A stretch of 64,000 nucleotides of DNA from Octopus vulgaris (taxonomy: Eukaryota). The translations under genes and the position numbers were made by a program. Location: the NCBI GenBank assembly GCA_951406725.2, contig OX597814.1, forward strand, positions 99,944,001 through 100,008,000, written 5' to 3'. A model generated the notes under the pieces. The model saw only the letters and a list, made by a program, of their open reading frames with translations. It ran no database searches and had not been told where the DNA came from. Positions 30,222 to 64,000 of this stretch are shown one piece after another; positions within the stretch are counted from its first letter, which is position 1, and each line of letters opens with the position of its first letter.

Positions 30222-30272
<51 letters not shown>

Positions 30273-30278
<6 letters not shown>

Positions 30279-30626
30279 AAAGGGTAAAATTAATTAATTG
30301 ATTAATAATTAATAAGTTTACCAATCAGTTCGGTATGTTAAAAGAACCATTATCGGTAACCTTGTACAAAAGTTCTATAATTATAAGCATAATTATCATC
30401 AGGGCTCAGCAAATTGCTTCACCACATAACGAAATTTTAGAAATAGCAGTTAAAACTATTTCTCTGCCATAGGATATCTCTCAGACAGCAATACTCCTAA
30501 TTCACGTAGGTAAAGAGAAAATTAACGAATCCACCCGGCTTTTGATCAACCGCATACGCGTTTCTGGATTAAAGAGATGTAAAATTTTATTTTTACTCAC
30601 TTATTTTCGTCTTCAGTGTAGTATTT

Positions 30627-30630
<4 letters not shown>
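30273..30630 (-). mobile_element. Retrozyme-like non-autonomous element between two (TA)n tracts; HHR at 30549-30622
   Basis: Minus strand: actaca-CTGAAGA-...-GAAAC GC GTA-tgcggt. Terminal hairpin, agggct/ttagcaa..ttgc..caccaca and ttagaaatagcagt blocks are shared with 60718-61100. Stem II is degenerate. Confidence 0.7.
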
Positions 30631-57791: not shown

Positions 57792-58659
57792 ATGTATGTA
57801 TGTATGTATGTATGTATGTATGTATGTATGTATGTATGTATGTATGTATGTATGTATGTATGTATGTATGTATACGTATCTATTTACATACATACACACA
57901 CATACACACAGAATAAAATAAGTATAAAATCTCTTCAAATTACTAAACGGTGAAACTTAAATGCTCCCTCTCAAACCCCAGCCCTCTCCACCTCTTTCTA
58001 CCTTTCTTTCTCTATAAAACATTAACATAACCCTATCATCACCCTATCTTAGATGCCAGGTCACATTCCCTTCTCCAAGTTTCCAGGCAACCTGTTTCTA
58101 TGCTACTTTAATTCCGTGGATTGCGGTACCAGATATATTACTAGCGACACTGACTGAAAATATTGTTTCCTAACCATCGAATCTTTGGACGTCGTTTAGC
58201 TGCCACCCTATATTAAATCTCAAACCTCATTATACACTCGCATAGCCATAGTCATTTTGTCAAAAGAAATACAAAAGCAATCATTCATATTAATTACTCA
58301 ATTTCGGAAAGCAATTTAACGAAATAAGCTAAGTAAGCATGCAATCAATAATGTATGAAAATCAAATGTATTAAATTATATTCATTGAATCTAGATAGAA
58401 ACGATTCTTATGCCATAAATTCTCTGTTTAAAATGTCATAAATTAATCCTTCAGAAAATCCACATGGTGACTAAGTCAACTTTACAGGAATTGCATAAAC
58501 AATACAGGAAAAATACGTAAATGTGCTGGACAGTCAATGACTTTGAGAAAATGATGCAATTGACGAAAACGGATTGATGGTTTCTTGGGTGAGCTCTGAG
58601 AAATACAGCGTTTAATAACAATACAAAGGAACATAATAATGATAATAATAATGATGATG

Positions 58660-58708
<49 letters not shown>

Positions 58709-58991
58709 CAACAACAACAACAACAACAGCAGTAACATTAACAACAACAGCAACAACAACAATAAAAACATCAATAATAAAGAAAACAATAATGCCATTC
58801 TTTCTGTTGATTGCCAAATGAGCGCATATTTTGCGAGAGTAATAGTTTGGTATGGTTAGGTTTTCTATGGTTCGGTCAACAATAAACATAAGAAGGACAA
58901 TGGTAGGACAAGAATCTGCAGGCAATTAACTCTTAATGCAATTCTGTCTGCTATTAATCAATATTGTGTATGCTTGTGTGCGTACGCTTGC

Positions 58992-59050
<59 letters not shown>

Positions 59051-59350
59051 TATATTTGTGTATGTATATATAAATGTTTATGTGTATAAATTATGTAATA
59101 TAATCTGTCTAGTGTAGGTACAAGGATTGAAATTTTTTAGTCAATTACATCAATCCCAGTGACTAACATAAACTTGTTTCCACGAACGCGAAACGATGAA
59201 ACACAATATTGAAGTCAAATTCAGAAAGTAAAGAACCAGAAGAAATGCCTCTAAGTATTTTGTCTGGCTCGGAAAAGATTGTACTAGCCGACCGCCTTGA
59301 AATTAAAGTAATAATAAAGTAATATACATATGTGTATACATACATACAGT

Positions 59351-59632
59351 GGAGGCGCAATGGCCCAATGGTTAGGGCAGCGGGCTCGTGGTCAGATGAT
59401 CGCGGTTTCGATTCTCAGACCGGGCGTTGTATGGTTTTATTGAGCGAAAACCACGAGGCTCAGGCAGGGAATGGTGGCGACCCCTGTTGTACTCTTTCTC
59501 TCACTCTTTCTTCCTGTTTTTTGAATAACGCTGCGATGGACTGACGTCCTGTCCAGCTGGAGGGAACACATACGTCATAGAAACCGAGAAACCGGGCCCA
59601 TGCGCCCGGCTAGGCTTGAAAAGGGCGAGAAA
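59351..59632 (+). mobile_element. SINE with family C head and an alternative 3' tail
   Basis: ggaggcgcaatggcccaatggttagggcagcgg...ggtttcgattctc, ctttctctcactctttcttc, then a tail different from 53308-53400. Confidence 0.8.
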
Positions 59633-61007
59633 CAATATATACATACATACACGCATACATACATACATACATATATACATACATATATGTAGGTGTGTGT
59701 GGTAAGTAGCTTGCTTACCAACAACATGTATGTATGTCATGCGCTTTGCAGTAAGGCGCAGTGTATCATGGAAATGCCGCTATAACTCATAAAAATCATC
59801 AATACTGGATTTAAAATTATTCGCCGTTTATCTACTGTAAAATTTCGCGGTTCATTTTAAATATTATGAGTATGTGTTGAATTTTGCATTTGTAACTTGC
59901 TAGTAATTATTTTTAATAGAAGCACTTAACTAGAGCGTAGTGGGAAGAAATAGTCATCTACTTTGAACTCAGTACCTGATTGTTACTTAATTAATGGAAA
60001 ACGTAACCATTAATATGTTATTTTTTTTCAGCGCCCAGTCAATTGTGTCAATACATCACCCTCAGTAATTTATTATAAATTAAATTTTCACTCAATCAAT
60101 TTATTTTAAAATTCGTTGTAGAAATTTATTGCGGTTAACAATTATTTTATTCTCTACTTTTTCATGGTTTGCTGTGTTGCAATTTATCCAGAAAGCATCA
60201 CACTTACGTGTGCAGTGTGATGGTTTGGATCACATAATAATGCTTTAAAATGTTGTACATACATAGAAATCTGTATTTTACACTCCTTGTTGGAAGTATA
60301 TTCTGAGTGATTTGCGATTTGTATATCATAAGTGGGAGGTGTTTGAGTTCTTTATGAATTTTGTTAATGATGTATTTATCAATTTTATAAGTAACTTTTA
60401 TTTTGTTCAGGTTGTGCATTGTTACTTGGTGTTGCATCTGTTGTAAGAGTGTGAGAGAGGTTGTATTTGCGTTGGTCTGTTATAGTTAAGGATACCAATC
60501 TCTTCAGTTACTAATTATTTCAAAACTTTCTTAATCTTCTATGATTTCATTATTAAAATCTTCTTCAGTCGAGTATAATTTACAAATAAGCCTGAGAAAG
60601 GATTTCACTGGTCATATTTTGTGTCTACGTTGTCACACGGCACATCCGCGCATATGTATGTATGTTTGTATATATATATATATATATATATAGATATATA
60701 TATATATATATATATATAATTATCAATAATAAAGGGTGAAATTAATTAATTTAGAAATAATCATTAATTTCACCAAGTAGAGTTCGGCATGTAAAAGCCC
60801 CATTCAAGGAAGGCTTAAGTAATACTAAGTAATTAAGGGTTTAGCAACGATTTGCCTCACCACACACCGAATTTAGAAATAGCAGTCAAAAAGTTTTGGC
60901 TATTCTTTCTACTTAAAAGGGAGATTCCAGTAAAACCAAAGCACTTAAAAAGCAAACGACGCAGGCAAAAGAGAAAGAAATGACGAAAATCATTCTATAT
61001 TAAGTCA

Positions 61008-61098
61008 CCTACGAACGTACGTTTCGGAATTAAGTCATTGCAGAGCATAAAAATAAAATCAGTATGTCTTACCTGACTATTTTCCTCCTCAGCGTAGG
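61008..61098 (-). ncRNA. Type I hammerhead ribozyme (GUU triplet)
   Basis: CCTACG-CTGAGGA-GGAA...TTCC-GAAAC GTAC GTT-CGTAGG. Confidence 0.85.
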
Positions 61099-61746
61099 AC
61101 TCTTCAATCATAAATAATTGCGTCTCAATTATTAATAATTGTGTATTAAATTTGAAGGCACTAGAAGACATCACCTCAACTCATGGTATCAGAGCGAGCG
61201 TAAGGCTTTCCAGTACCACCAAATTCATTGGGTGAATGAAAGTATGTCACCATCCCCCTACCGCCAGCGTGCTGCCAAAATAAGATGCTACAGTTTTTTA
61301 AGTGCTTTGGTTTTACTGGGATCTCCCTTTTAAGTAGAAAGAATAGCCAAAACTTTTTGACTGCTATTTCTAAATTCGGTGTGTGGTGAGGCAAATCGTT
61401 GCTAAACCCTTAATTACTTAGCATTACTTAAACCTTCCTTGAATGGGGCTTTTACATGCCGAACTCTACTTGGTGAAATTAATGATTATTTCTAAATTAA
61501 TTAATTTCACCCTTTATTATTGATAATTGTATATCTCATCCAAGTAAAAAACTGTAGCATCTTATTTTGGCAGCACGCTGGCGGAAGGGGGATGGTGACA
61601 TACTTTCATTCACCCTTTGAATTTGGTGTTACTGGAAAGCCTTACGCTCGCTTTGATACCATGAGTTGAGGTGATGTCTTCTAGTGCCTTCAAATTTAAT
61701 ACACAATTATTAATAATTGAGACGCAATTATTTATGATTGAAGAGT

Positions 61747-61837
61747 CCTACGCTGAGGAGGAAAATAGTCAGGTAAGACATACTTATTTTATTTTTATGC
61801 TCTGCAATGACTTAATTCCGAAACGTACGTCCGTAGG
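61747..61837 (+). ncRNA. Type I hammerhead ribozyme (GUC triplet; predicted cleavage after 61831)
   Basis: CCTACG-CTGAGGA-GGAA AAT AGTCA...TGACT TAA TTCC-GAAAC GTAC GTC-CGTAGG. All core nucleotides intact. Palindromic stem III ACGTACGT. Confidence 0.92.
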
Positions 61838-62029
61838 TGACTTAATATAGAATGATTTTCGTCATTTCTTTCTCTTTTGCCTGCGTCGTTTGCTTTTTAA
61901 GTGCTTTGGTTTTACTGGGATCTCCCTTTTAAGTAGAAAGAATAGCCAAAACTTTTTGACTGCTATTTCTAAATTCGGTGTGTTTTGAGGCAAATCGTTG
62001 CTAAACCCTGAGTCGCTCAGGTTTTTGAA

Positions 62030-62570
62030 CTGAGGAGCAAGATTTGCACCAGGTCCTGCGTTCTGATGCCTTGTTTTCCCAGGAAGAAAAGGGAAGGTTG
62101 CATCACTTCAGATTGTCTTTCAATTTGTTTTTGAAGTGCAATAGTGGAATTCTAATTGATTTCATGTTGGAAATTGGCCAAATAGGAATTGCTTCGGAAT
62201 TCTGATATCATTCATACGTGAGAGGTAAACTGACTATCTAAGCTGTATTTTGATGAGGATGACTTCAATACCCGGTATGCTGCATTTTGTTAGAATCTCA
62301 CTATTATGAATATGGTCTCTCGGTTTTATGTTGCAGATAGGACGTAAACACCACATATGAAAAGCGTCAAGTTGGTTGATGTGTTTTCGGAATAGAGTCC
62401 AAAATTCCGGCTGGGGCTATGCTGTAGCGCCGCCTTTCAGCGAATTTGGATCACCTTTCTGTACTGTTTTTGGTGAAGAAGTGAGTTAGACACAGAGCCG
62501 ATCTTCTTAAGATATGTCGTATCGTGTAGTCCTTCAGTTTTACATATATAACTGTGATTAGTATGATGTT
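62030..62570 (-). pseudogene. RTE-clade LINE C-terminal remnant
   Basis: Minus strand: NIKPRDHIHNSEILTKCSIPGIEVILIKIQLR*SVYLSRMNDIRIPKQFLFGQ...LKDNLK*CNL...WENKASERRTW. Confidence 0.75.
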
Positions 62571-62605
62571 GCAGCTTGATTTCATTCTAGAGTTATTTGG
62601 ATTTG

Positions 62606-62826
62606 TACGGTGAGGTGCTTAAAAGTTCCCGGCTTCGGGTAAAAGAAAATACAGGAGGATCAGTTAATTATGATTTTATTCAACATATTCTCCTCTCAGG
62701 TTCACACACTTGTTGCAGCGGTGCTTCAGTTTTTCTAAGCCCTGTAAAAGCACTCGGAAGTTTGGGCCTCCAACTTAGCCTTTCGCGATACCGTTAAAAC
62801 CAGGACCTTTTCAGCACTTCTTCGTA
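62606..62826. mobile_element. Mariner-type MITE (~220 bp)
   Basis: TIRs tacggtgaggtgcttaaaagttcccggct / reverse complement tacgaagaagtgctgaaaaggtcctggtt, with TA ends. Confidence 0.75.
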
Positions 62827-63019
62827 AATTCAGGGACTGAATTTTTCTTGTTTTTTTTGTATGTAGTACAATAAACATATAAACTACGTATCTTTTAAAG
62901 TTAATGCTATTACGTTAATCATATAGAACGACATGAATGTGGGCCTGAAAAGAAAACACATAGTTACTACATCGGCTTAGTCTATAGTTTGCTTTTGGGC
63001 AATGGAGGAAAACCTCAGC

Positions 63020-63110
63020 CATGCAGACGATGGTACAAATGCCGTGCAGACGATGGTACAAAAGTTGTGCAAACGAGCGTACAAAAAACATGTTGACAAT
63101 GGTACAAATA
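63020..63110. repeat. Degenerate ~22-23-bp minisatellite (4 units)
   Basis: tgcagacgatggtacaaa x2, tgcaaacgagcgtacaaa, tgttgacaatggtacaaa. Confidence 0.7.
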
Positions 63111-64000
63111 ATATCTATGCACAAGAGTTAGCTTGTTGGACTCAGGATAATATGTGGTCGGATCCATTCCTGGACATCATTATGTCTTTGAGTAACGCAC
63201 TTTATTAAAGGTTTTCCAGTTCACTCTAAAAGTACTATCAGCCCAGTGCTCTGGAAGCCCTCCTTCCCTCAAGCCATTATATCCTCGATATTCTGCTAAG
63301 TGGAATGTAAATTAGCAGAAAGGGTAGCTGTGGTTGCTTGCCACTAGAGATGCGCTTTATAGCGGAAACATACTACATAAGACTGAGTCATACTCTCTTG
63401 CATGTGACGTGGTATATTTTAACGGTCTACAAAAACTGAGTGTGCGTGTTTACAAGTGTGTGCATTCGTGTTCTCTTAAGGAATATGCGTCGGCATTGAT
63501 AGCAAGTTCTCTTTTCAGACGAAGTTAAGCAGTGCAAATGAGAGAATGTTTATCTATAAATTCCATATTTTTAAAGATATGCACTTATAATATTTTGGCT
63601 TGAAACAAACGACGATCATCTTCAGATAGAAGCAATTTTTTCCACATACCATAGAAAATATTACTTCACAGAGTTATTCTAAGAAATATTTTGAAGATAG
63701 ATTAGTCCTTGGTATTTCTGTTTTAGTACAATCTACTGTATTAAGTATCGCAACATTTTGAAGTCTGATAGTTATCTTATCTCCTCATGAATCATCATGG
63801 AAGCCAAGCATATGTGATAATTATTTTACATACAAGAAAATCATTCATTCATACATTTGCATAGTTGAAGCTGCTTCTATAACAGACTTTGTTTCTAACA
63901 TTGTTTATGTTAATAGAACAGTGGATTGGCAGAATTCTTAAGATCTCCAGCAAAATAACCTGTTGAATTCCCGTCGTGTTTAACTTTGGTTTTCATTCAT

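Follow-up and report, generated by a model that had tools for sequence, protein, structure and literature searches.

The window analysed here is a 64,000-nt stretch of the Octopus vulgaris genome (assembly GCA_951406725.2, contig OX597814.1, positions 99,944,001 to 100,008,000, forward strand). Between positions 60669 and 62407 we found two head-to-head arms of a repeat with a 599-nt unit, flanked on the left by a (TA)n tract and on the right by an older dispersed repeat. The unit was numbered u1 to u599, with u1 at window position 61295. The features of this region are listed below.

60669..60717/60718, no strand: (TA)n tract, the likely insertion target (TRF: period 2, 25 copies)
60712..61300, minus: arm 1, running u251 through u599 to u240, 589 nt, its end being the long (L) site (blastn against the doubled unit)
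61008..61098, minus: hammerhead of arm 1, predicted to be cut at 61014/61013; its GUC is changed to GUU
61295..61300, no strand: head-to-head junction, a 6-nt overlap common to the 5' ends of both arms (sequence comparison)
61295..62009, plus: arm 2, running u1 through u599 to u116, 715 nt or 1.19 periods (sequence comparison)
61419..61428, plus: where the short (S) start site (u125-134) lies in the template; arm 2 reads through it
61472..61511, plus: hairpin directly upstream of the L site, a candidate recognition element (self-inverted 40-mer, formed in the fold)
61521..61534, plus: where the long (L) start site (u227-240), a TA-like patch, lies in the template; arm 2 reads through it
61747..61837, plus: type I hammerhead with 6-bp stem I, core, long stem II, palindromic short stem III and GUC; predicted cut 61831/61832
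61894..62009, plus: second pass of u1-116, halting ~14 nt short of the usual S end and without a TA tract
62010..62407, minus: older dispersed repeat, a decayed LINE-like RT fragment (~80% identity to other copies), cut at the junction and outside the element

The minus arm, read from 61300 to 60712, was identical to the plus arm at 578 of 589 positions (blastn, doubled unit). Its element-specific part stops at 60718 (u234) and is followed by one mismatch and then by 5 nt common to the template and the (TA)n tract; the template immediately beyond the arm end is TA-like. The original prediction had described a minus copy whose 3' end abuts (TA)n and a read-through that begins with microhomology to the TA target, and both descriptions agree with the TRF tract and the blastn arm end at 60712. 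It had also described a plus arm longer than the 599-nt period, which is correct, although the arm measures 715 nt and not ~717 nt. The minus-arm end had been taken for the monomer junction; we found that it is a family-wide start site and that the monomer junction is instead the ribozyme cut site. The last segment of the plus arm (61894-62009) repeats 61295-61410 at a period of 599 with 2 differences.

As predicted, the unit holds no meaningful ORF: the longest stop-free frame in the doubled unit is 61 codons. No tRNA gene was found in window positions 58000-64000, and the GC content of the unit is ~36% (majority base counts). These values fit a retrozyme, an element without protein-coding capacity, LTR, PBS or PPT and with low GC, as described for metazoan non-LTR retrozymes (PMC7229834; bioRxiv 10.64898/2026.07.22.740005). 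The unit folds more stably than 100 of 100 shuffles (z = -5.75), a result that says nothing on circularity.

The repeat on the right flank (62010-62407), presumably RTE-like, has at least 425 candidates in the genome at about 80% identity. Its other copies extend beyond the retrozyme junction, and the part missing here is absent from the left side of the insertion. The simplest reading of the right end is that the S end (~14 nt) and the right TA tract would have been lost by deletion. No target-site duplication is discernible at the window locus. The locus is an ordinary, slightly damaged family member that combines an L arm with a near-S arm ending at u116. Further to the right, window positions 63017-63108 hold four degenerate copies of a 23-nt unit.

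The plus arm crosses the intact hammerhead that had been predicted, with the same cut site (61831/61832). In the minus-arm hammerhead, GUC is replaced by GUU, a C-to-U change present in 2 of 80 family passes. Rfam Hammerhead_1 gives 61747-61837 a score of 21.6 bits, which falls short of the gathering threshold of 34; the probable reason is that the model has a far shorter stem II. We compared 108 distinct hammerheads from the family and its sister families. Pairing was 94-98% in stem I and at the base of stem II, with two-sided changes, including G-C in 61 and A-U in 43 at pair 2 of stem II and C-G in 95 and U-A in 9 at the outer pair of stem I. The stem III 8-mers were self-complementary in 101 of 108. 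Stems and core are thus backed by covariation across the family, and the build is the canonical metazoan type I, for which self-cleavage is predicted. This build works as a dimer, and a short palindromic stem III is expected to give weak cleavage unless dimerised, according to PMC4209133. The minimum-energy fold of the hammerhead alone is not the catalytic fold and is no better than shuffles (z = -0.94).

The 599-nt family has hundreds of copies in the genome. The DNA search of the genome returned 2,166 first-look candidates, of which 40 were scored, and a 28-nt family motif and the hammerhead motif had 196 and 112 exact matches, respectively. Two sets of copies were analyzed. Set 1 contained the best matches of four DNA queries (70 loci, 100 arms) and is biased toward long, similar copies. 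For set 2, the 196 motif matches were sampled by taking the first 100, on contigs C1-C9 (88 regions); this set is unbiased as to the 5' end. We found that the 3' ends lie at S or L in 92 of 100 arms of set 1 and in 88 of 96 motif-drawn arms of set 2. S ends (u108-137, mostly u130) accounted for 52/100 and 57/96 arms, and L ends (u225-245, about u227-240) for 40/100 and 31/96; the two sites are ~110 nt apart. TA repeats adjoin the 3' end in 82 of the 100 arms of set 1. The 5' ends were scattered. We considered u251 as a defined 5' start because three copies begin at u251-252, yet only 2 of 101 did so in the motif-drawn set, and this candidate was rejected. Priming at an internal TA-like patch annealed to (TA)n, also part of the original prediction, is supported by these ends. 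The original prediction missed that there are two start sites and that two-armed insertions use one of each.

This pairing was found in both sets, with one L arm and one S arm in 23 of 27 two-armed loci of set 1 and 25 of 37 of set 2. After pooling (duplicates removed by arm text, ~130 loci), 43 of 55 two-armed loci were L+S, none was L+L or S+S, and the other 12 had an off-site end. The L arm ran beyond the S site in 36 of 43 cases, and therefore the same template stretch was copied twice. The junctions between arms (n=37) comprised 19 with overlap, 7 blunt and 11 with extra bases. L1 twin priming likewise gives head-to-head arms, each primed from one target strand and joined by microhomology. 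The L1 arms, however, cover non-overlapping parts of the RNA, unlike the L arms that pass the S start here.

Family arms are short, the longest being 1,075 nt, and no more than 9 of 100 extend over two cut sites. Copies with at least two same-sense hammerheads therefore occur in the family; the window locus has one per strand, because of which it would probably not release a monomer. An RNA spanning both of its arms (60712-61893) would form a 589-bp duplex with 98% complementarity, a possible substrate for editing or silencing. We also looked for an RNA-editing signature among the template variants, and there was no excess (A>G in 9 and T>C in 8 of 68).

Judged by its layout, the family carries the footprint of EN-bearing Neptune and Nematis Penelope elements, namely a partial tandem, an inverted 5'-truncated copy, a tail at one end and microsatellite targeting (PMC8557442, PMC3846280). 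A (TA)n bias is known for Penelope-like elements, and the terminal repeat of Neptune/Nematis-type elements contains a hammerhead, as does the 599-nt unit. Unlike those elements, the 599-nt unit has no RT/EN ORF, and its tail is ~110 nt compared with their 30-40 nt.

We then searched the genome for candidate enzymes. A search for GIY-YIG domains gave 6,136 candidates, 150 of which were scored, and 16 of these 150 lay within 781-aa frames with an RT, a C-terminal GIY-YIG endonuclease and a Cys-rich linker. The linker is a mark of Neptune/Nematis elements (PMC8557442), a clade to which these frames may belong. The 16 places (L195:1745-4087 and 15 more) belong to a Penelope-like family that is young, has its 781-aa RT+GIY-YIG frame intact and a further frame upstream, and repeats with a period of ~4.8 kb; the hammerhead pattern gave no canonical hammerhead in this family. 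Of 8 copies of the 781-aa family, 7 ended at (TA)n, using either of two sites that lie 38 nt from each other, which is the typical Penelope tail. The genome thus holds autonomous Penelope-like elements that share a comparable two-end habit, and their proteins are candidate enzymes for the 599-nt family. The unit has no sequence similarity to the sampled autonomous Penelope families: blastn against 36 Penelope regions drawn from the 150 scored of 6,136 candidates found no autonomous partner, only neighbouring insertions and one 16-nt match to the unit.

Across the 258 retrozyme locus records, the two Penelope ORFs had matches close to no more than 3 places, and tblastn found none within the 64-kb window. 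Two of the three places (L298 and L237) were inspected as possible retrozyme-Penelope chimeras and rejected, as they are separate insertions with other sequence between them. Because the two places inspected are separate insertions and the window has no match, the unit is not just a pLTR. This agrees with the absence of an ORF in the unit and with the direct head-to-tail repeats, and the earlier proposed refutation, by which the unit would be no more than a pseudo-LTR belonging to a coding Penelope-like element, did not hold.

To examine what served as template, we analyzed passes over the ribozyme cut site. In the motif-drawn set, 92 of 101 passes ran through the cut site, which supports a template other than a cut linear monomer, and all 152 of 152 crossings lacked any inserted base. 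The identification as a retrozyme made in the original prediction is borne out. A further 9 of the 5' ends were located within 9 nt past the cut site (3.3 expected, Poisson P = 0.007). This enrichment is a hint only, because three of these ends sit exactly at the motif edge; it hints that cleavage may occur in vivo.

We next compared sequence variants within and between loci. Divergence within loci was 2.5% within arms and 2.2% between arms; the corresponding values between loci were 5.0% and 4.5%. Of the comparisons made at 30 polymorphic sites, 14 of 249 between passes and 12 of 253 between arms showed a difference, with random expectations of ~93 and ~95. Over 699 sites, the upstream pass was the odd one at 5, and the terminal passes at 10 and 9. 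Divergence one period apart was 2.4%, compared with 2.0% in the same register (P=0.21), and we took these as equal. A single haplotype per locus together with an upstream pass that is not more diverged indicates that each insertion came from one sequence, through a frequent one-unit bottleneck. A recurrent bottleneck of this kind is what a circular template would predict. However, three of seven recurrent differences between upstream and downstream units were located in loci of the same haplotype, which would be expected if a two-unit parent were inherited and counts against a pure monomer circle.

The window copy follows the family in this respect. Its arms differ at 12 of 573 sites (2.1%), each with changes of its own; they share five non-majority variants, one of which was found nowhere else among 55 passes. 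Since the divergence between its arms equals the family average of 2.2% and exceeds the 0.4% found within sister-family arrays, the copy is not especially fresh, contrary to what had been proposed.

Sister families have units of 589-601 nt (one compared unit is 76% identical), and the sister-family motif had 1,164 exact matches. They share the two-end habit and the L/S pairing, which held in all 10 of 10 two-armed loci with both ends in view. The longest of their arrays measures 3,692 nt (6.3 units), and 27 unit pairs compared within loci diverged by 0.4%. In arrays L182 (G000:C1:50432067-50435758) and L185, variants recurred every 3 units, and in L184 every 2 units at one site; in L182, one variant was confined to the terminal units of both arms. 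The period-2 and period-3 variants may reflect multimeric circular templates or duplication after insertion. Because period-3 patterns suggest such duplication, the long arrays are weakened as proof of rolling-circle copying. A pure monomer circle leaves these recurring variants and the terminal-unit variant unexplained.

No run on record as RNA contains the stretch. Contigs of presumed-RNA runs cover parts of the unit, and contigs of this kind cannot show cleavage, strand or circles. On balance a circle is favoured as template, with a little more than an even chance, and an uncut multimer, at around one chance in three, fits nearly as well; about one chance in ten is left for other templates.

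The multimer reading supposes the same enzyme and the same two start sites acting on an uncut or partly cut linear multimer from a young tandem parent, with circles uninvolved, and we consider it possible at roughly a third. The dominant in vitro substrate of one Penelope protein is uncut RNA (PMC11167929), and weak cleavage is predicted for a short palindromic stem III unless dimerised (PMC4209133). Some 5' ends lie at the cut site although downstream sites are intact, and in one sister array both arms carry a variant in the terminal unit, which would fit linear copying as well. It would nevertheless have to account for many haplotypes, private variants included, each present in both passes of a locus, and the upstream pass, which is not more diverged, would require the one-unit bottleneck to recur often. 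In addition, when linear parents are copied with 5' truncation, arrays can only become shorter, so that tandems would need another regenerating step.

A second alternative, which we consider improbable, is that cut linear monomers served as template, with the RT jumping end to end between them or between two identical RNAs. Copying would then continue across the cut site and, provided that the molecules came from one locus, leave a single haplotype there, and the overlap of L arms with the S-arm template would be easy with two molecules. End-to-end RT jumps, as known for R2 and group II RTs, usually leave added bases, yet none was seen at the cut site in 152 passes. Many haplotypes also coexist, and still arms and passes agree within loci. 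It is very improbable that the unit merely forms the pseudo-LTR in a longer coding Penelope element, or that the locus was misassembled or arose by fold-back at the DNA level: the architecture is that of Penelope ends and no contig bridges the inversion junction among the matches listed (4 runs), but the unit lies head-to-tail with itself at period 599 in many loci, Penelope ORFs are rare near its copies and separate where inspected, and the 2.1%-divergent window arms with changes of their own belong to a build found at 43 loci.

We therefore prefer to read the window locus as a two-armed copy of a non-LTR retrozyme, a 599-nt hammerhead repeat without coding capacity, which a Penelope-like enzyme likely inserted from a template that was most likely a unit-length circle, and assign this reading a probability of about 0.7. 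Loci with two same-sense hammerheads would be transcribed and cut as ribozyme dimers, and the released monomer would be ligated. At a (TA)n tract, a Penelope-like enzyme would make a nick in each strand, and one cDNA would be primed from each target strand, both on one RNA. Starts would occur at S on one strand and at L on the other through short TA-like microhomology. Each cDNA may continue for up to several rounds before the two cDNA ends are joined by microhomology. At the window locus, a later or concurrent deletion would have taken the S end and the right TA tract, and the resulting copy, which has a single hammerhead on each strand, would be a dead end.

More tentatively, we suggest that Penelope-like integration could be an obligately asymmetric two-primer reaction on one RNA, with S and L assigned by strand, in which both cDNAs on a ribozyme-made circle roll past their own start and the other; this generalisation is less likely to hold than to fail. 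If true, tails, partial tandems and inverted copies would all come from one step, and retrozyme families would be a genomic record of circular RNAs as retrotransposition template. Explanations for animal retrozyme mobility and for Penelope tails and inverted copies have so far been proposed rather than shown. Because exact start sites, the strict L-with-S rule and one haplotype per insertion are now at hand, the circle hypothesis is directly testable in vitro with intact Penelope-like ORFs of the same genome.

Taken singly, none of the features is new, and neither is the class of element. Metazoan non-LTR retrozymes have been published together with a target-primed circle model through Penelope-like elements (PMC7229834), and their Penelope origin has been argued (bioRxiv 10.64898/2026.07.22.740005). 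Our family resembles those of PMC7229834 in its non-coding tandem unit, its one type I hammerhead per unit and its low GC. Its 599 nt exceed the 150-450 bp given there but lie within the 51-972 bp of bioRxiv 10.64898/2026.07.22.740005. It differs in that stem II is unusually long and that it consists mostly of partial tandems and inverted pairs. The accessible text of these two sources does not describe fixed ends or two-arm pairing.

The likeness to Poseidon PAc (PMC11167929) extends to two internal start sites that set the tail, cutting and extension of both strands, and an AT-rich target. Its in vitro template is uncut linear RNA, and as described there its start sites show no strand difference and no target homology, whereas here clean pairs are L+S and both sites are TA-like. 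With the circle model (PMC7229834) and internal initiation on uncut RNA (PMC11167929) both in print, the template inference itself is not new. Strict S/L pairing, single-haplotype passes and the 599-nt family were not found in the limited literature searched.

Some further copies deserve mention. The 589/591-nt sister family (L185:1668-1778, L186:1446-1557) has a CCGAUGA core instead of CUGANGA, together with a two-sided change in stem II. L188 and L189 (G000:C1:216.17-216.18 Mb) are duplicated sister insertions in which one arm stops a few bases after the hammerhead cut site and not at S or L. Within the window itself, positions 30259-30630 (minus strand) hold a ~360-nt relative with ~70% identity over u61-240. 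It is flanked by (TA)n at either end and its hammerhead is degenerate; it is an older insertion of a related family.
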